Positions 3,286 to 63,866 of a DNA stretch of 64,000 nucleotides are shown in pieces (within the stretch, counting starts at the first letter, position 1; each line of letters opens with the position of its first letter). The notes under the pieces were generated by a model, which did not search any database, was not told the origin of the DNA, and saw only the letters and a program-made list of their open reading frames with translations. Both the position numbers and the translations under genes were made by a program. This DNA comes from Patescibacteria group bacterium (GTDB taxonomy: Bacteria > Patescibacteriota > Minisyncoccia > UBA6257 > UBA9933), in NCBI GenBank assembly GCA_038065955.1, contig JBBTPY010000001.1, forward strand, positions 1,890-65,889, written 5' to 3'.

Positions 3286-3298
3286 TGGATTTAAATCC

Positions 3299-3383
3299 TA
3301 TCAATTTCGGTTATTTCAACGATAGTTGAAATAACCGAAATTGACTGAAACATTATGAAACATTAAATATTCTTCTATAAAAT
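3299..3383 (+). repeat. intergenic palindromic repeat element, copy A
   Basis: 42-bp palindrome caatttcggttatttcaacgatAgttgaaataaccgaaattg (one centre mismatch) plus conserved tail TTGACTgaaacatta..aaatattcttcTATAAAATT; between divergent DJ-1 and MBL genes. Confidence 0.8.
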
Positions 3384-3404: not shown

Positions 3405-4031
3405 ATGAAAATTGAAATTTTACAACTTGGACAATTACAAACAAATTGTTATATCGCCCATTGCGGCGGCGAGGCGATTATTATTGACCCGGCCGATGAA
3501 GCGGAATTTATCGCGGAAAAAATCCAGCGGCTCAATCTCAAACCGTCGGCGATTCTGGCGACCCACGGCCATTTTGACCACATTCTGGCGGCCGGCGAAC
3601 TACAAATGCTCTTAAATATCCCTTTTTATATTCATCCGGCCGACGAATTTCTGCTTAAAGAAATGAACTCTTCGGCGAGTTTTTGGCTGAAAAATAAATT
3701 TAATTATCCCCTGCCGCGAGCTATTGAATTTATTAAAAAAGAATTTTCTATAAAATTCGGGGGTTGCCGATTAAAAGTTATAGAAACTCCCGGACACACG
3801 CCGGGGTCAGTGTGTTTTTTAAGCGAAGACGTTATTTTCAGCGGCGACACTTTATTTAAAAACGGCGTCGGCAGAACCGATTTTTCTTATTCCGACAAAA
3901 CTCAACTCGAAAAATCATTGGAAAAAATTTTCCGCCTGCCTGCCGGTAGGCACGGCCTACCGGCGGAAACTATTATCTACTCCGGCCACGGCGAAGAAAC
4001 CACGATTAAAGACGAAAAAATTCATAAATAA
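3405..4031 (+). CDS. MBL-fold metallo-hydrolase (glyoxalase II-like)
   Basis: THGHFDH metal-binding motif, GHTPGS, overall beta-lactamase fold pattern. Confidence 0.75.
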   Translation: MKIEILQLGQLQTNCYIAHCGGEAIIIDPADEAEFIAEKIQRLNLKPSAILATHGHFDHILAAGELQMLLNIPFYIHPADEFLLKEMNSSASFWLKNKFNYPLPRAIEFIKKEFSIKFGGCRLKVIETPGHTPGSVCFLSEDVIFSGDTLFKNGVGRTDFSYSDKTQLEKSLEKIFRLPAGRHGLPAETIIYSGHGEETTIKDEKIHK

Positions 4032-12449: not shown

Positions 12450-12526
12450 GTTGGCTCGCCCTGAGCTTGTCGAATGGGCTCCGCGCGCTTTTAATGAGTT
12501 CTTTGGCGTGAGGGTAAACTTTAACT

Positions 12527-14194
12527 TTAAAAATTAAATAATATATTTAAGATTAAACCGAACAACAATTCCGGACTAATGAGAGTACTGGGAGGCGGCA
12601 TTACGCCTTCCGGCGGCATCATACCATTAGGGGCTGTTCCTTCCGGAAATTCTTGACCTTCAATTGAACTGGGAATCTGCGGACCCATTGGGATTGTCGG
12701 CGCCGAATAAAAACGCTGGCATTCTTCAAGATGAAACTGGCAATAAGATTGGCATTCTTCTTTTGTTAAACAACCGCCCGGCCCTTCGGGCATCCTTTCT
12801 GGTATTCCTATAGACGCGTCTCCTCTCATATCCCTGGTTGGAACTTGAAAATTTTTACATTCTTCCGGATTCGTTTCGCAATATGTTTTACATTCTTCCG
12901 AAGTTTTACAACCGCCGGGCCCGGTCATTTCCATCGGCATTTGGCCATTGGATTTAATCGGAGGGCCTATAAATTTCGGACCACCGGCCGGACCCATATT
13001 TTTTTCAAAACACTCTCTCATTTTATCGCCGATTTCCCGTCCCGGCATAACAGCTCCGCTTTGAAATTTTTCCATTTGTTCCGCCCCCATCGCGGCGCCA
13101 AGACATTCTTTCACTTCCGGCGGCGCTTGATTTAACGATTCTTGAAATTTCTGTCTGCCTTCTTCCATTTGGCGCAAATCCGCTTCCGGAATTAAACCAT
13201 GCTCTTTGCCGAAATTAAAACAAGTTTCCTGATTATCCGGATTATTGCAAAATGCCTCGCATTCGTTTCTACCTTTGCATCCGCTCGGACCTTTTCCGCC
13301 GGTTTTTCTCGCCATCGCCGCTTCTTCGGCGCTCATAAAACCGGCCGCCTCGGCAAATTTCATACATTCTTCAAGATGACTTTCTTCTGAACAATAAACA
13401 TCGCATTCTTCTCTGCCCCTGCAAGGCGGCGGTTTAACGCCTTTTTTAAGGGCCTGCAGCATTTTTTGACCATCCTCTTTTTCCCGCTCGTCCATAAAAC
13501 CCGCTTCAATGGCAAAATTTATACACGCTTCCATATTATCGGGATTGCCGCAGTATTCATCGCAATCTTTTTTGCCACTGCACGGAGGAGGTCTTATTCC
13601 TCTTTTAATTGCCATCAACATTTTTTGAGCGTCTTCAAATTCTTTGCCCTGAATAAAGCCTGCTTCCATACCGAAAGCTATACATTCTTCCATGTGATCC
13701 GGCTCGCCGCAATAAACATCGCATTGTTTTTTATTGCCGCAAGGAGGCGGTTTAACTCCTCTTTTAATGGCGGCCTGAACTTTTTTGGCTTCGGCCAATT
13801 CATCCGGCGGTATTAAATTATTTTTCTCGGCGAAAGAAATACATTCATCTATATGAGATATGTTATTGCAATATTCTTCGCAATTATCTTTACCCGTACA
13901 GCCGCCCGGTCCCTTGGCTCCGGCCGCTATAAATTTTTTCGCCCGCTCAATTTCTTCTTCGTCCATTAAATTATTCTTTTCGGCAAAATTTATACAGGCC
14001 TTAATATTCTCCGACTTGTCGCAATAAGCCCGACAATCGGCTTCATTCCGACAATTACCCAATTCTTTGACCGGATATTGAATATCCGGCTCCGTTTGAG
14101 CCGATATTTGAGCCAATGTCTGGCCAATTAAAACGCCAAAAATCGCGATTCCAAAACTTAAAACAATAAAACTAAGAAAATATTTTGTGTTCAT
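12527..14194 (-). CDS. secreted cysteine-rich repeat protein (about 9 four-Cys modules, Pro-rich C-terminus)
   Basis: Signal peptide; reiterated module C-x4-C-x3-C-x8-C-x2-F(A/G)..(A/E)G(F/L); KPPPC linkers; PEGVMPPP tail. Confidence 0.6.
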   Translation of the reverse strand: MNTKYFLSFIVLSFGIAIFGVLIGQTLAQISAQTEPDIQYPVKELGNCRNEADCRAYCDKSENIKACINFAEKNNLMDEEEIERAKKFIAAGAKGPGGCTGKDNCEEYCNNISHIDECISFAEKNNLIPPDELAEAKKVQAAIKRGVKPPPCGNKKQCDVYCGEPDHMEECIAFGMEAGFIQGKEFEDAQKMLMAIKRGIRPPPCSGKKDCDEYCGNPDNMEACINFAIEAGFMDEREKEDGQKMLQALKKGVKPPPCRGREECDVYCSEESHLEECMKFAEAAGFMSAEEAAMARKTGGKGPSGCKGRNECEAFCNNPDNQETCFNFGKEHGLIPEADLRQMEEGRQKFQESLNQAPPEVKECLGAAMGAEQMEKFQSGAVMPGREIGDKMRECFEKNMGPAGGPKFIGPPIKSNGQMPMEMTGPGGCKTSEECKTYCETNPEECKNFQVPTRDMRGDASIGIPERMPEGPGGCLTKEECQSYCQFHLEECQRFYSAPTIPMGPQIPSSIEGQEFPEGTAPNGMMPPEGVMPPPSTLISPELLFGLILNILFNF

Positions 14195-16825: not shown

Positions 16826-16945
16826 TCATATCAATTTCGGTTATTTCAACGATCGTTGAAATAACCGAAATTGACTGAAACATTAATTGACTAAAACATT
16901 AAAAACATTAAATGTTCTTCTGTAAAATTGTCTGTAAAATTAATA
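16826..16945 (+). repeat. intergenic palindromic repeat element, copy B (longest, with internal tail duplication)
   Basis: Perfect 42-bp palindrome caatttcggttatttcaacgatcgttgaaataaccgaaattg at 16832-16873 plus duplicated gactgaaacattaa tail and ..ctgtaaaattaataaatga. Confidence 0.85.
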
Positions 16946-20284: not shown

Positions 20285-20550
20285 AAATTTATTTTATCAT
20301 TTTCTTATAATTTTTTGTTGTCCGAGATATAAAAATAAACGCAACAGGCAATTATTCTCTGAAAGATTTGCGTAAGTTGATAACTTCCGCCGGATTATTG
20401 AGCCGCAAAGGAAATATGCTTTCCGTCTCCAATATTCAAATACTTTCCACGTTTTGCGCTCGCAAGCGATTTGTTTTGAACCAAAAAAGTCGTGGAGAAT
20501 TCTTGCCGATTTGCCCGCCGAGGGGCGAAGCCCCGAGGCGGTGAACTCGT

Positions 20551-21010
20551 ATCATACTATCTGGCTCCCCGGGTAGGATGGTTCGACAAGCTCACCATTT
20601 TTACCTACCCTAAAGACATATCGCCAATCTCACGGCTTTTACTCAGCTTTTTCAATAATTCCTTATCGCTGTTAATTAAAGCTTTCTTTTTTGCGATGGA
20701 CCACTTTTTAATTTGCTTTTCTCGTTTTTCAGCAACTATTCTTTTTTGATATTCCTCTTTATATACAAGCTTTATATCAGAAAACTTTTTAGTGTAAAAA
20801 GATTCTCTTCGTTTATGTTGAGTTAATCGTCTTTCAATATTATCGGTAACACCGACATAAAAAGTTTTCTGGTCGCAAAAAAGAATATACACAGCCCAGG
20901 ACATATCATAATTATATTGTAAAAGCCCTGAGCTTGTCGAAGGGCTCCCCGGGTAGGATGGTTCGACAAGCTCACCATTTTTACCTACCCCAAAGACATA
21001 TCGCCAATCT
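20551..21010 (-). mobile_element. GIY-YIG nuclease cassette flanked by 69-bp direct repeats derived from the tRNA-Asn 3' end
   Basis: ggctccccgggtaggatggttcgacaagctcaccatttttacctaccc(t/c)aaagacatatcgccaatctc occurs at 20551-20619 and 20941-21009 (one mismatch). Both copy the acceptor and T-stem strand of the adjacent tRNA-Asn with an insertion in the T-loop. Confidence 0.6.
20605..20904 (-). CDS. GIY-YIG domain nuclease (UPF0213-like, 99 aa)
   Basis: MSWAVYILFCDQKTFYVGVTDNIERRLTQHK matches the GIY-x10-YIG...R...H motif. Start set at the internal Met; the longer ORF in the track reads through the repeat. Confidence 0.7.
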   Translation of the reverse strand: MSWAVYILFCDQKTFYVGVTDNIERRLTQHKRRESFYTKKFSDIKLVYKEEYQKRIVAEKREKQIKKWSIAKKKALINSDKELLKKLSKSREIGDMSLG

Positions 21011-21059
21011 CTTTTTCTATTCATAATTATATTGTAAAAGCCCTGAGCTTGTCGAAGGG

Positions 21060-21131
21060 CTCCCCGGGTAGGATTCGAACCTACGACCAAGTGCTTAACA
21101 GGCACCTGCGCTACCACTGCGCTACCGGGGA
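21060..21131 (-). tRNA. tRNA-Asn (anticodon GTT)
   Basis: Manual fold: acceptor TCCCCGG/CCGGGGA, D-arm GCGC-AGTGGTA-GCGC, anticodon loop CTGTTAA, T-arm GTAGG-TTCGAAT-CCTAC, discriminator G, then CC. Confidence 0.85.
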
Positions 21132-21233
21132 ATGCTTGCCCCGCATAAAGCTTCGCTTTTGTGCGGAGTTTAATTGTCAATATTCTATCGCTGACAAAAA
21201 TCAGTTTAGCAAAAATCAAAAAAATATGCAATA

Positions 21234-21300
21234 AAATCAATTTCGGTTATTTCAACGATCGTTGAAATAACCGAAATTGATAGCGAAAATTTCTTCTGCC
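21234..21300 (+). repeat. intergenic palindromic repeat element, copy C (tail truncated)
   Basis: Perfect 42-bp palindrome at 21238-21279, immediately upstream (on the minus strand) of tRNA-Asn. Confidence 0.8.
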
Positions 21301-33499: not shown

Positions 33500-33696
33500 G
33501 TCTGTTTGAAAATATCCCTGCCTGCCTGCCGGCAGGCAGGTCCCCCCGAACCCTTGCCTGCCCGACGAATAGGCGGGAACCGGAGCGGAAAGCATGCCCC
33601 GTAGTGAACGCGGAGCGTTCTACTACTGGGAGACGATTTTCCGCCAGAGGCGGATCTGCCTCAGACATGACAAGTTTTTCTTTAGCGGCAAATTCT
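33500..33696. other. GC-rich noncoding islet (about 60% GC in a roughly one-third-GC genome) with a 24-bp palindrome
   Basis: No credible ORF (only R/P/A-rich overlapping frames). Contains (CCTG)3CCGG(CAGG)2 at 33517-33540 and a motif gacgatttc..aagtttttctttRgcggcaaattctt repeated at about 34395. Confidence 0.5.
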
Positions 33697-36101: not shown

Positions 36102-37442
36102 TCAATGGCTCCGCTTGTTTTGCGCCCCCGCAACAGTAGAATCTGACTGCGCGCGGAATTCGGCATCTTTTATTAATACATCCGGATGCACCCGGAAAGT
36201 ACGCTCGTTCCAGCCGAAAAGATACAAACCCGAAAGCCGCCTGACGCGTGAAAGCGCGACATAGCCCTGCCCAAATTCAAATACATTACTTAAATCCATA
36301 GCCGCCTCGTCCAAACTCATGCCCTGACTCTTATGTACCGTGATTGCCCAAGCGAGACGAAGCGGCAATTGAGAAATTCGCGCGCGGATATTGCCGTCCT
36401 CTTCCATCGACCAATCCATCGACTCAACCTTAATCCATCTTCCATTCCGCGTCTTAACAGTTGGATAGCCGCTGTGTTTATCAAATTCTTCAACCACGCC
36501 GAGCGTGCCATTTACGAAACTTCCTTTCTGATTATTCTTTGTGAACATCACCGCCGCGCCAACTTTGAGATAAAGCATCTCCGGCGAAAGACACCCTCTC
36601 TTAAGCGCGGAAACAAGCGCGTCCGGGCCTTGCGAAGACATAGTGAATACTCGCGGTTTGCCGGAAAGTTTAGAGAGCACCTCGTTATTTACGCGATCCA
36701 CATCGGCATTATGCGAAAATAGTTTCGGTACGCCGTCCGGCGCGGCATGAGGATCAATTTTTCTTGTTTCAATGCGGCTCAAGTGATCGCTGTCAAAAAT
36801 ATTATTCCGAATCGCCGAGAGCAGAACGAGAAAATTACTGTCATCCTGCCGGTACTGTTCGGTGAGATAACAGACGGTTGGGTTTGCGCGTTTCCACGCG
36901 GGAGAGTCATAAGCAAAACGAGCCGGCGGTTCTTCTCGGCCCAAGGCTGATCCGCCTTCGGCGGAAATGAGCGCCGTTTGCGCATCGTCTCCAATTTCTG
37001 TTTTTACAATCGGCGGCAATTGGAAAAAGTCGCCGACTAAAACAATTTGAACGCCGCCGAACGGCTCCGAACTCTGTTTTATTTCGCGACATACGGCATC
37101 AACCATGGATAGTGTTTCGGGAGAAAGCATGGAAACTTCGTCTATAATAAGTATTTTGGAGCGCTGGACGCGTTTTGCGATGCGTCTATTTGACGCGATT
37201 TTATTAAGACCATATTTGTCCAATTTTGTTTTAATTCCTATACCGCTCCAAGAGTGGATTGTCATCCCACCTATATGCGTCGCGGCAATGCCGGTTGAGG
37301 CCGTAATCGCCGGCTCAATGCCATGCGCGCGCGAATATGCCGCATATTCATTGATAGTATGCGTCTTGCCGGATCCGGGCTCGCCTGTTAAAAAAACATT
37401 TGCGCCGGTCTTCAATATTGACAGCGCTTGGGATTGGGTCAT
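36102..37442 (-). CDS. Pif1/RecD-like SF1B DNA helicase
   Basis: Walker A GEPGSGKT, DEVSM (Walker B), VGDFFQLPP, C-terminal AITVHKSQGMSLD..GQGYVALSRVR; about 50% GC; start overlaps the upstream stop (TAATG). Confidence 0.8.
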   Translation of the reverse strand: MTQSQALSILKTGANVFLTGEPGSGKTHTINEYAAYSRAHGIEPAITASTGIAATHIGGMTIHSWSGIGIKTKLDKYGLNKIASNRRIAKRVQRSKILIIDEVSMLSPETLSMVDAVCREIKQSSEPFGGVQIVLVGDFFQLPPIVKTEIGDDAQTALISAEGGSALGREEPPARFAYDSPAWKRANPTVCYLTEQYRQDDSNFLVLLSAIRNNIFDSDHLSRIETRKIDPHAAPDGVPKLFSHNADVDRVNNEVLSKLSGKPRVFTMSSQGPDALVSALKRGCLSPEMLYLKVGAAVMFTKNNQKGSFVNGTLGVVEEFDKHSGYPTVKTRNGRWIKVESMDWSMEEDGNIRARISQLPLRLAWAITVHKSQGMSLDEAAMDLSNVFEFGQGYVALSRVRRLSGLYLFGWNERTFRVHPDVLIKDAEFRAQSDSTVAGAQNKRSH

Positions 37443-39797: not shown

Positions 39798-40100
39798 AAA
39801 TGTTGGCTAAGTTATCCAACTACTGACTCCCACGCTTCAAATATAGATACTAAATTCATACACGCATTATATCTCAACGACCGCCCCTCATCAAATTGCT
39901 CTCTGGAAAAATCGCCTGAAAATCCCTACCGCGTCCTTCCGAAGCGCTTACAGAAGCTGGCGCGAAGGAGGATAATCCTTATTGCCGAGCGGACGCTTTC
40001 GTTCCCCATCAAAAATGCTTGGATTCTCGCGGGGAAATACCATGCCGAGGCGCGAAGCGCCGAGGCAACATCCTCCCCAAAATGGGATTTAGATAAAATG

Positions 40101-40185
40101 CGGAGGGTACAGGATTTGAACCTGTGATGCCTTTCGGCATACTCGCTTTCCAAGCGAGCGCACTAGACCACTATGCGAACCCTCC
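40101..40185 (-). tRNA. tRNA-Ser (anticodon GGA), class II with long variable arm
   Basis: Manual fold: acceptor GGAGGGT/ACCCTCC, anticodon loop TTGGAAA, variable hairpin ATGCC-GAAA-GGCAT, T-arm ACAGG-TTCAAAT-CCTGT. Confidence 0.8.
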
Positions 40186-40481
40186 ATATTTCCTCTTTAA
40201 TTCTTCTCGTTTATAACCATTTTTATATTCTAACTCAAGTTTAATGGATTTCTCTTCTGAAAAAGTCGCTATTTTTTCTAGAAGAATAAATGGTTTTCTG
40301 GACTTCGTAGATCTAACCTTGCCAGAATTATGTTCATTGAATCTTCTTTTAAAATCCTTTGTCCTGCCAATGTATAGATTATTATCTTTCAAACTTTTCA
40401 GAATGTAGACGAAATACATAATTTATAAACGCACTAGACCCCTGCCTGCCTGCCGGCAGGCAGGACTATGCGAACCCTCCA
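40157..40481 (-). mobile_element. GIY-YIG cassette inserted at the 5' end of tRNA-Ser with duplication of tRNA nucleotides 1-27
   Basis: cgcactagacc + actatgcgaaccctcc (tRNA 5' part) recurs at 40430-40480, interrupted by the 24-bp palindrome cctgcctgcctgccggcaggcagg; the GIY-YIG ORF lies between the copies and ends inside the tRNA. Confidence 0.6.
40171..40419 (-). CDS. GIY-YIG domain nuclease (82 aa)
   Basis: MYFVYILKSLKDNNLYIGRTKDFKRRFNEHN matches GIY-YIG; last 15 nt are tRNA-Ser nucleotides 1-15 (GGAGGGTTCGCATAG encodes GGFA-stop). Confidence 0.7.
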   Translation of the reverse strand: MYFVYILKSLKDNNLYIGRTKDFKRRFNEHNSGKVRSTKSRKPFILLEKIATFSEEKSIKLELEYKNGYKREELKRKYGGFA

Positions 40482-40500
40482 TAAACTTTTACATCTTATC

Positions 40501-41091
40501 TTATTTATAAACAATTACCAAGCCATTGCCTTTGTTTTTTTTCGCTTTATACATATTTTTATCGGCTTTTTCTATAAGCAAACGAATATTGGAAACAACT
40601 TTTTTTCCGCTTTTTGCCGAAACTGCGCCGAAACTGGCGCTCGGCTTGAACGAGCGAGGCGCGCCGTAAATTTTTACCGCCGATAATTTTTTCCGCAATT
40701 TTTCGGCTACTTTCACGGAATTGCCCAAATCGACATTGACAAGCCCTATCACGAATTCATCGCCGCCCCATCTGCCGACAATGTCCAAATCCCTGAGATT
40801 TTTCGTAAAAACTTTGGCGGCTAATTTTATAAAACTGTCGCCGGCTTTATGGCCGTATTTATCGTTTAATTTTTTCAAATTGTCCAAATCAACGAATATT
40901 ATTGAAAAATCAAAAACGACAAAACGGCTCCCCTCTTTTATTTCAACTCCGCCGCGCCTGATTGTTTCAAGAAACTTTTCCGCCTGCCGGACAAATCCTT
41001 CGCGATTGTAAACGCCCGTTAAAAAATCGCGTTCCGCCAAAATTTTCAATCTTCTGACTTCTTTTTCCAGTTCCCTGATTTTTTTATTCAT
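40501..41091 (-). CDS. GGDEF-domain diguanylate cyclase with N-terminal coiled coil
   Basis: RWGGDEFVIGL active-site motif, FIFVDLDNLKKLND; ATG at 41091 (the track starts at an upstream TTG). Confidence 0.8.
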   Translation of the reverse strand: MNKKIRELEKEVRRLKILAERDFLTGVYNREGFVRQAEKFLETIRRGGVEIKEGSRFVVFDFSIIFVDLDNLKKLNDKYGHKAGDSFIKLAAKVFTKNLRDLDIVGRWGGDEFVIGLVNVDLGNSVKVAEKLRKKLSAVKIYGAPRSFKPSASFGAVSAKSGKKVVSNIRLLIEKADKNMYKAKKNKGNGLVIVYK

Positions 41092-63509: not shown

Positions 63510-63536
63510 ATTACAAATTTTAAAAATTAAATCTCT

Positions 63537-63565
63537 CCGCCGAAGGCGGATCCGCCTTCGGCGGA
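63537..63565 (+). terminator. GC-rich 13-bp-stem hairpin downstream of def
   Basis: ccgccgaaggcgg-atc-ccgccttcggcgg; no clean U-run, so intrinsic termination is uncertain. Confidence 0.4.
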
Positions 63566-63775
63566 AAATCTCAAATTTACATCTTATCTTGCTGTAAAAT
63601 AAAATCTTAAAACAAATACAAAATCCTAAATTCTAAATAATATCAAAATCCAAAATTTAAAACTCAAAATACGCGAATTATTATTTTTTGAATTTTGAAT
63701 TTTAATCATTTGAATTTATTTGGGATTTATCCCCCACATAAAATTATGTGAGGGGATTTAGAATTATAAGACTTA

Positions 63776-63866
63776 TATCATATCAATTTCGGTTATTTCA
63801 ACGATCGTTGAAATAACCGAAATTGGCTGAAACATTAAATATTCTCCTGTAAAATTAATAAATGAT
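63776..63866 (+). repeat. intergenic palindromic repeat element, copy D, upstream of fmt
   Basis: Perfect 42-bp palindrome at 63784-63825 plus tail ..TTGGCTgaaacattaaatattctcctgtaaaattaataaatga. Confidence 0.85.

Follow-up and report, generated by a model that had tools for sequence, protein, structure and literature searches.

GIY-YIG homing endonucleases of phages include free-standing enzymes, such as the Seg proteins of T4, among which SegB acts in a tRNA gene region, and the intron-encoded I-TevI. In this study, we analyzed 64,000 nt of DNA from a Patescibacteria group bacterium (GenBank assembly GCA_038065955.1, contig JBBTPY010000001.1, positions 1,890 to 65,889; this whole stretch is called the window), in which a stand-alone GIY-YIG open reading frame (ORF) of 82 aa is nested in a tRNA-Ser(GGA) transcription unit together with a GC-rich palindrome and a second copy of the tRNA 5′ end. 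We favor, with a probability of roughly 0.55, the reading that the arrangement belongs to a family of ~330-bp homing-like selfish cassettes of Patescibacteria, which place a minimal GIY-YIG nuclease in tRNA transcription units. Such a cassette resembles Seg and I-TevI in its GIY-YIG domain, in being a small, apparently selfish gene in or beside a conserved gene, in its patchy and decayed copies and, presumably, in spreading by break-induced homologous repair. Unlike them, its 82-aa protein has no DNA-binding domain, falls in the Slx1/YhbQ branch and is found neither in an intron nor in a phage, and the cassette carries a replacement target segment and a conserved palindrome, with the target being regenerated.

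Other described systems share part of this layout. Elements and prophages that integrate into tRNA genes span kilobases, rely on an integrase of the tyrosine or serine type and in most cases duplicate the tRNA 3′ part. The cassette shares with them the insertion within a tRNA gene, the direct repeats of tRNA segments at both ends and the element-borne replacement, an arrangement that is formally of the Campbell type. However, it has no recombinase, measures 330 bp, replaces the 5′ part and lies between promoter and tRNA. The transposases associated with repetitive extragenic palindromes (REP) and their paired form (REPIN), termed RAYTs, are relatives of HUH/Y1 transposases, and miniature inverted-repeat transposable elements (MITEs) rely on DDE transposases; GIY-YIG enzymes work without a covalent DNA intermediate. 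As in REP/REPIN-RAYT systems, a single-copy nuclease gene is accompanied by short GC-rich palindromes that also exist as ORF-less copies, although the cassette protein is a GIY-YIG and not an HUH enzyme, and only the cassettes specifically target the ends of tRNA genes. A 3′-side type of cassette, described below, is MITE-like in its terminal inverted repeats, target duplication and mini derivatives. Fungal mitochondria contain mobile GC-rich palindromic clusters, some of them flanking tRNA genes. These too are short GC-rich palindromes in an AT-rich genome, often near tRNA genes and apparently mobile, but they differ in lineage and sequence and have no linked nuclease ORF of this kind.

The closest relatives with structures are proteins of the UPF0213 group (E. 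coli YhbQ, B. subtilis YazA, BH0048 with structure 1zg2 and EF2693 with structure 1ywl), which, like the cassette protein, consist of a single minimal domain. The accessible part of a 2006 survey treats UPF0213 proteins as vertically inherited housekeeping or repair genes whose role is unknown and, in contrast to what we describe here, reports there no link to tRNA genes, palindromes or mobility (PMC1564403).

The tRNA-Ser cassette in the window and in related genomes

On the minus strand, the cassette reads tRNA nt 1-16, palindrome, tRNA nt 17-27, spacer, 82-aa ORF and intact tRNA-Ser(GGA), and its length is ~330 bp. The intact tRNA gene (40100-40185, minus strand) is called by ARAGORN and by Rfam (RF00005, 58.4 bits, cut-off 29). 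The ORF (40171-40419, minus strand; ORF list and Pfam PF01541), a stand-alone gene of the Slx1/YhbQ/UPF0213 type, runs into it: its final 15 nt (GGA GGG TTC GCA TAG) are tRNA nt 1-15, with nt 13-15 serving as its stop codon, and nt 1-16 of the tRNA gene are contributed by the 3′ end of the cassette. Ahead of the ATG lie a 10-nt AT-rich spacer, TTTATAAATT (40420-40429, minus strand), in which no Shine-Dalgarno motif was seen, and a copy of tRNA nt 17-27, GGTCTAGTGCG (40430-40440, minus strand), which comprises the 3′ half of the D-loop and the 3′ strand of the D-stem. Next come the 24-nt GC-rich palindrome CCTGCCTGCCTGCCGGCAGGCAGG (40441-40464, no strand assigned), which is the left end of the cassette, and an orphan copy of tRNA nt 1-16, GGAGGGTTCGCATAGT (40465-40480), listed with two preceding nucleotides as 40465-40482 on the minus strand. 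The AT in front of the orphan copy is also common to the tRNA-Ser locus, and the copy presumably adjoins the native tRNA promoter. An earlier interpretation of this DNA made without database searches, hereafter the sequence-only reading, had described an ORF whose last 15 nt are tRNA nt 1-15, and an upstream duplication of nt 1-27 split after nt 16; the first was confirmed base for base and the second at 40430-40480.

Further upstream, a candidate promoter (TTGGTA, 17 nt, TAAGAT; 40493-40521, minus strand) was picked by eye, matching at 8 of 12 positions and falling below the threshold of a consensus scan; it might drive fragment, ORF and tRNA as a single transcript. A canonical terminator of the upstream GGDEF gene was rejected as an explanation of the fragment, since none is predicted and the fragment is also present where the upstream gene lies on the other strand. 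The idea that GGAGG (tRNA nt 1-5) acts as a Shine-Dalgarno sequence was dropped because cassettes at tRNA-Gln, tRNA-Lys and tRNA-Thr lack it. At the gathering threshold, Rfam reported only three tRNAs in the window and no group I intron; the insertion lies in the D-loop and the downstream tRNA is uninterrupted.

The same layout recurs far from this genome. Homologues of the ORF number >130 and come nearly all from Patescibacteria (Nomura-, Vogel-, Wolfe-, Taylor-, Adler- and Sungii-bacteria and Paceibacteria), many of them terminating in YGG(V/F)A, the translation of tRNA-Ser nt 1-15. A locus scan took one genome per species, and the relative loci retrieved carry L-numbers as labels. In 28 of the 31 scanned loci, a tRNA-Ser gene (anticodon GGA, UGA or GCT) directly follows the ORF on its strand, in line with the proposal of the sequence-only reading that other copies be checked for a position at tRNA genes. 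A palindrome-split copy of the 5′ end of the locus's own tRNA is present in all but one of the 27 loci having upstream sequence (26/27). Fragments follow the order nt 1-16, CCTGCCTGCCGGCAGGCAGG or a near variant, and nt 17 to ~24-44, and are separated from the ATG by 2-16 nt in most loci and by up to 33 in L002 and L112. Orphan nt 1-16 match the own tRNA at 16/16 positions in 16 of 26 loci and at 15/16 in 6 more, with more than a dozen distinct 16-mers among the copies. Overall, the layout was found again in about 40 independent loci. Chance or an assembly artefact is ruled out, as it recurs in metagenome-assembled genomes from many independent studies. Judged by this distribution, the layout is old and conserved across many Patescibacteria lineages and is not a recent event in the window genome.

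Constraint on the parts was measured on one set of 23 loci. Fragments are identical to their own tRNA at 0.976 for nt 1-16 and 0.951 for nt 17-24, compared with ~0.75 to other loci, and the match is significant by permutation (p<1e-4), also when shuffling is confined to isoacceptor classes. Between loci, nt 17-24 are 72% identical. Mean pairwise identity is 0.974 for the palindrome, 0.69 for codon positions 1+2, 0.41 for third codon positions and 0.29 for the 30 nt upstream of the fragment, and unpaired fragment positions (nt 8-9, 13-15) are as conserved as paired ones. The ORF is thus under purifying selection. Between L005 and L007, the flanking HtpX is 75% identical and the intergenic leader is unalignable; homology restarts precisely with fragment nt 1 and extends to nt 24. 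Taken with the constraint, this pattern argues that nt 1-16, the palindrome and nt 17-24 are a functional cis element and not a decaying relic.

Tandem arrays indicate both the boundaries of the unit and its insertion point. In L190, the array starts with a leader, nt 1-16 and a unit of palindrome, nt 17-27, spacer and an ORF ending in nt 1-16; it closes with a unit of palindrome, nt 17-26, a 20-nt remnant of the ORF 3′ end and nt 1-16, to which nt 17-86 are joined. Arrays of the same build occur in L015 and L021. A unit thus consists of palindrome, tRNA nt 17-2x, a short spacer, ORF and nt 1-16, and its insertion point in tRNA-Ser is nt 16|17, a D-loop position directly before G18G19. Arrays are explained by regeneration of the target sequence at the right junction; in the window, the left junction is disrupted by the palindrome and the right junction regenerates nt 1-27. 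The sequence-only reading had put the insertion after nt 27, which the three arrays move to 16|17, and had taken the palindrome for an interruption of the duplicated fragment. With an identity of 0.974 against 0.41 at synonymous positions, it is instead an integral end of the cassette.

The 82-aa protein matches Pfam PF01541 (GIY-YIG; E 1.2e-15, 58 bits, cut-off 22.6) over residues 1-71, and Y5, Y16, G18, R26, H30 and E62 are invariant in 29 sequences; it is assigned to the GIY-YIG superfamily, and its catalytic residues are intact. In phmmer searches against the PDB, 1zg2 (BH0048) was matched at E 9.7e-8 and 1ywl (EF2693) at E 9e-4, with weaker matches to I-TevI (0.05-0.2) and Slx1 (0.22), and by homology the protein belongs to the prokaryotic Slx1/YhbQ (UPF0213) branch and not to the I-TevI branch. 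This branch is characterized in the accessible part of the 2006 survey as a minimal stand-alone GIY-YIG domain, and one fusion of the Slx1-like branch to a TrmH-like tRNA G18 (D-loop) methyltransferase is mentioned there (PMC1564403). No curated NCBIfam or PADLOC family was reached by the protein: TIGR01453 (grpIintron_endo) scored 26 bits against a cut-off of 56, with only the N-terminal 61 of 215 profile positions matched, and PADLOC returned nothing above cut-off, the GIY-YIG part of PDC-S14 being matched weakly and partially (E 3e-3 to 4e-6, ~35 residues). The GIY-YIG gene is the only ORF between the repeats, which enclose no tyrosine or serine recombinase; a resolvase gene beside L191 lies outside the unit and is missing from other loci. 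Since there is neither an integrase nor a DNA-binding domain, membership among classical homing endonucleases or integrating elements is not established. The sequence-only reading of a homing or integrating element with a replacement tRNA segment therefore stands for the insertion into a tRNA-Ser transcription unit that carries a new 5′ end, and not for the class.

The palindrome and cassettes at other tRNA genes

The window palindrome is a private 24-nt form of the 20-nt CCTGCCTGCCGGCAGGCAGG. An identical 24-mer, as the sequence-only reading had reported, stands alone at 33517-33540 (no strand assigned), at the edge of a GC-rich islet and ~40 nt upstream of a minus-strand ORF start; none was expected from 100 shuffles. 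The private form is common to both window copies and was not seen elsewhere, which points to copying within the genome. The palindrome also exists as an ORF-less entity in other DNA: solo copies lie at L009:702 and L022:3543, both at the edges of GC-rich islets, and contigs of viral collections hold 42 exact 20-nt copies in 35 stretches, most of them GC-rich. Nested palindrome-in-palindrome copies occur in L019 and L030, and in L002 the palindrome takes a differing position, after nt 9. A library adaptor, which exact copies in unrelated GC-rich contigs could suggest, is ruled out by the lineage-specific variants, the nested copies, the genome-private 24-nt form and the fixed structural position. 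In predicted RNA, the palindrome hairpin is stacked on the D-stem (-36.8 kcal/mol, z -4.8). Where un-nested palindromes depart from Watson-Crick pairing, the sense strand shows G.T in 10 copies and A.C in 1, a slight hint that this strand may form the hairpin.

Several further observations concern palindrome-like sequences. The islet adjoining the solo copy (33541-33670, ~0.6 GC compared with 0.39 for the genome) lies between the start of a 327-aa ORF and the end of a 172-aa ORF and, when known noncoding RNAs were looked for, gave no credible Rfam match even at E<=1. Direct repeats enclose the solo palindromes of three viral contigs, L148 (8 nt), L154 (14 nt) and L164 (7 nt), which suggests target duplication or slippage on insertion. 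On two GC-rich viral contigs (L170:2239-2330 and L147:8570-8660), the 20-nt palindrome sits in the variable loop of tRNA-Met(CAT) as a long variable arm, and ARAGORN still calls a 92-nt tRNA; in L147, the 5′ half of the T-arm is missing and the motif TTCGACAGGCTCACC then follows. A nested hairpin at window 3930-3968, TTCCGCCTGCCTGCCGGTAGGCACGGCCTACCGGCGGAA, is akin to the palindrome; it lies in an apparent coding region and may be an in-frame insertion.

Cassettes were also found at tRNAs other than tRNA-Ser. At tRNA-Gln(UUG) (L122), nt 1-12, a 30-nt GC hairpin and nt 12-27 precede an ORF that overlaps the tRNA, and at tRNA-Thr(CGU) (L125) the fragment is split by a 42-nt AT-rich palindrome. 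The tRNA-Lys(UUU) cassette (L177) has the CCTGCC... palindrome of the Ser type in its D-loop. In L027, ORF and tRNA-Val, in this order, are enclosed by the two halves of another tRNA, which is interrupted in its D-arm, and this cassette has no hairpin. The tRNA-Lys(UUU) cassette, L177:480-900, is on an IMG/VR contig of GC 0.42; its downstream tRNA copy diverges after nt 33 into GC-rich, intron-looking sequence, and the anticodon loop of its upstream fragment is uninterrupted. At L027:2950-3470, the two tRNA halves are bracketed by an 8-bp inverted repeat, TCCCGATT / AATCGGGA.

A second GIY-YIG cassette of the window, from a different clade, represents the 3′-side type and occupies 20563-21132 on the minus strand. 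Read along that strand, tRNA-Asn(GTT) (21057-21132, minus strand) is followed by an ORF-less mini unit and by a unit with a 99-aa GIY-YIG ORF (20605-20904, minus strand). Both units have the inverted repeats TTCGACAAGCTC / GAGCTTGTCGAA at their ends, and after each stands a copy of the last 16-17 nt of tRNA-Asn, giving three copies in all. This cassette has >200 relatives. The same inverted repeat is found in L129, 3′ of tRNA-Gln(CTG), whose 3′ end is also copied over 16 nt, and in L130, 3′ of tRNA-His; L138 has no tRNA and only inverted repeats. Among distant relatives from the Ser-type scan, L026 and L028 are tRNA-free with 20-24-nt inverted repeats at their ends, and an ORF-less mini copy adjoins L028. 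Compared with MITEs, the Ser type has no terminal inverted repeats flanking the ORF and a palindrome at one end only; in the Asn type and L129, terminal inverted repeats of 12-17 nt are combined with a duplicated tRNA 3′ end of 16-17 nt, with no transposase. Thus, two of the three tRNA genes in the window carry GIY-YIG cassettes, and the window has no other GIY-YIG ORFs.

Other repeats of the window were recorded alongside these cassettes. A solo half of the Asn-type inverted repeat lies at 12463-12474. The sequence CCGAGGSGCGAAGCSCCGAGG, a 5-bp hairpin with a GAA loop, occurs 25-35 nt downstream of both tRNA/GIY-YIG loci (20518-20538 and 40045-40065); its two S positions differ compensatorily (G..C, C..G), these are its only 2 copies in the window and ~70 nt around both align. 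A near-perfect AT-rich palindrome of 44-47 nt with shared flanks, TCAATTTCGGTTATTTCAACGATCGTTGAAATAACCGAAATTGA, forms another dispersed hairpin family (3298-3344, 16829-16874, 21237-21283 and 63781-63825), with one copy ~100 nt upstream of tRNA-Asn. A GC-rich double-hairpin repeat (..GGCCCAAGGCTGATCCGCCTTCGGCGGAAA) at 36934-36967, 63534-63567 and 33638-33671 resembles the double hairpin that splits a tRNA-Ser fragment upstream of an unrelated GIY-YIG gene in L037. Imperfect repeats at 13208-14026, spaced by 159 nt (and ~300 nt) and 69-78% identical, have their coding side on the minus strand and probably encode a repeat-domain protein.

Gain, loss and competing explanations

The site of the window cassette lies in a conserved synteny, HtpX-GGDEF-tRNA-Ser(GGA). 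HtpX is upstream of the tRNA in the window, L002, L005, L007, L008, L011, L019, L112 and L190, all with the cassette, and also in L032-L038. The latter include the empty tRNA-Ser(GGA) sites whose search the sequence-only reading had proposed. In L038 (HtpX 79% identical to that of the window) the tRNA is present without a cassette, and L036 (67%) is empty, with promoter-like sequence (TTGATT..TAGAAT, 9 nt before the tRNA) directly ahead of the tRNA. L032 (74%) has neither tRNA-Ser nor cassette at this position, L037 (71%) has a GIY-YIG gene of another clade (39% identity) with its own D-loop double hairpin, and L033 (69%) keeps a relic, an ORF-less orphan fragment of the foreign type GGAGGCG... 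beside a resident tRNA that begins GGAGGGT.... The nearest relatives of the window by HtpX (67-79%) are thus without its cassette type, which more distant hosts carry, and pairwise identities of the GIY-YIG protein and HtpX are uncorrelated (rho -0.05). ORFs are truncated or frameshifted in L004, L024, L025, L029 and L030.

In a neighbor-joining tree of the ORF (~76 residues, without support values), GCT-linked ORFs form one clade, and GGA- and UGA-linked ORFs interleave, the window with L001 and L190 with L191. The interleaved ORFs sit in non-orthologous syntenies, linked to HtpX or to RuvX/PilM; the GGA and UGA forms of tRNA-Ser have almost the same first 27 nt. Presence and absence at an orthologous site, degenerate copies and incongruence with the host, as expected of a homing life cycle, were all found in comparisons at genus level or deeper. 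These patterns support the view that the cassette behaves as an element that is gained and lost.

If the cassette is homing-like, as we favor, the host's original nt 1-16 would be left as an orphan beside the tRNA promoter, and the nt 1-16 of the cassette would join host nt 17-86 to rebuild a working tRNA. ORF and tRNA would be co-transcribed from the tRNA promoter, so that silencing or imprecise deletion of the cassette would cost the tRNA. The D-arm region of tRNA-Ser DNA, or else the hairpin, may be where the nuclease nicks or cuts; having no DNA-binding domain, the enzyme would probably recognize its target by structure. Repair would proceed by homology-dependent copying from an occupied allele, for which single-crossover integration of a circular form with nt 1-16, palindrome and nt 17-2x contiguous would be equivalent, and homology arms would be provided by the fragment halves on either side of the palindrome. 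With the target regenerated at the right junction, repeated insertion could produce the tandem arrays, and element-level selection for arms matching the resident tRNA could maintain the identity between the two. Mismatch loci agree with the crossover model: in L017, L030 and L033, the upstream fragment is of foreign type and the downstream tRNA is self-consistent, as would be required by selection on tRNA function. Two of these loci, L017 (R26H) and L030, hint that fragment and tRNA may diverge when catalytic residues have been lost. A simple target-site-duplication model is not favored for the Ser type, given these foreign-type fragments and the fact that nt 17-24 also track the tRNA.

Several points weigh against this reading. 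The most serious is the regenerated target next to the cassette, since an enzyme making sequence-specific double-strand cuts would turn on the copy in its own host; the nuclease would therefore have to nick, act on structure or be tightly limited. A precedent for a nicking cassette nuclease may be I-HmuI, an enzyme that nicks DNA with and without the intron. The protein is a bare catalytic domain in which no DNA-binding module is recognizable, and the promoter assignment is weak, the consensus scan having found no site above threshold at the expected position. There is no direct evidence of recent movement: P0037, the only protein with wide sampling (24 contigs), is always in one context, the scan returned a single locus per genome, and even the closest ORFs from different loci share only 79-91% identity. 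Viral contigs, a possible vector, yielded no Ser-type cassette and only distant giant-virus GIY-YIG genes. The GGDEF protein of the window had no exact match on record, and no strain-level relatives were obtained from it. Finally, the fragment was long kept within one vertically inherited sub-clade (L005-L007, L011), which suits a cis-acting RNA or a host function equally well.

This last point leads to the possibility that the nuclease has a host function, in repair or in tRNA or RNA metabolism, and is inherited vertically with occasional loss. The leader would then be a tRNA-mimic decoy or antitoxin-like inhibitor, an mRNA 5′ stabilizer or a tRNA-Ser sensor, with the palindrome as an RNA hairpin. 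Such a domesticated or cis-regulatory module would explain why fragment and palindrome persist over long vertical spans beside a randomized leader, and why conservation ends at ~nt 24, where the D-arm is complete. The sense-strand wobble bias (10 to 1), the z of -4.8 for the predicted hairpin on the D-stem, the constancy of the D-arm region in clades with different hairpins, the single locus per genome and the survey's fusion to a TrmH-like tRNA G18 methyltransferase (PMC1564403) all agree with it. We nevertheless regard it as unlikely, since it leaves unexplained the tandem units with ORF remnants in L190, the foreign-type relic of L033, the pseudogenized ORFs, the absence in the closest relatives and the same ORF sub-clade at non-orthologous tRNA-Ser genes. 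Moreover, the equal conservation of unpaired nt 8-9 and 13-15 suits a need for sequence identity and not for pairing alone, and the 3′-side type has transposon-like inverted repeats with a 16-17-nt target duplication. It is likewise doubtful that the cassettes are a new kind of transposable element in which a hairpin and tRNA-identical segments in cis guide a bare structure-specific nuclease into tRNA genes. The segments, split in the D-loop (5′ type) or comprising the last 16-17 nt from the T-loop onward (3′ type), would pair with or mimic cloverleaf-prone tDNA and lead to a nick and copy-in at a tRNA loop, and the widespread 20-nt palindrome would be a non-autonomous derivative.

The palindrome on its own could also point to two independent parasites, an ORF cassette inserted after ~nt 27-44 that duplicated the tRNA 5′ part and a 20-nt palindrome that landed later, with only interrupted copies remaining because unbroken direct repeats delete the cassette. 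The solo palindromes (window 33517, L009:702, L022:3543), the 42 exact copies on viral contigs, some with 7-14-nt direct repeats or in the tRNA-Met variable loop, the nested copies of L019 and L030, the shifted palindrome of L002 and the fragment right edge varying from nt 24 to nt 44 would all fit. We consider this history improbable: one and the same palindrome holds one position in all clades linked to GCT, GGA and UGA and recurs in the D-loop of the tRNA-Lys cassette, it opens every tandem unit, and point mutations could equally break the repeat, yet the fragment is 95-98% identical to its tRNA. Very little weight is given to an RNA-level, intron-like insertion, in which the tRNA would be assembled from upstream nt 1-16 and downstream nt 17-86 with the nuclease as processing enzyme. 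The cassette is formally inserted in the D-loop, the tRNA of L027 is split in the D-arm by a GIY-YIG unit closed by an 8-bp helix, and bacteria of the Candidate Phyla Radiation (CPR) are known for rRNA gene insertions (PMC11270868). However, an uninterrupted tRNA is encoded immediately downstream, which makes splicing unnecessary; no Rfam intron or ribozyme was matched, and the cassette has no RNA ligase or known splicing endonuclease.

Significance for the family and for annotation

Full-text literature searches, which covered few subscription journals, returned no account of tRNA-nested minimal GIY-YIG cassettes, of the palindrome or of a link between UPF0213/YhbQ/COG2827 and tRNA. The tRNA-targeting GIY-YIG cassettes therefore appear to be an undescribed family of selfish elements, and it is a real possibility that targeting by hairpin plus homology is a new mechanism. 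If the favored reading is true, an 82-aa domain with ~45 nt of cis sequence would be the smallest autonomous selfish DNA unit known to us in bacteria, and it would make it possible to test how tRNA genes are found by a nuclease that has no DNA-binding domain. The cassettes also bear on the annotation of tRNA fragments, of ORF calls through the palindrome and of overlaps of ORFs with tRNAs. They would account for GC-rich palindromes, for spurious ORFs of the 'FDKL/RQAG' type in CPR assemblies and for some assembly breaks at tRNA genes. For the uncharacterized prokaryotic Slx1/YhbQ family, they would provide a first biological context.

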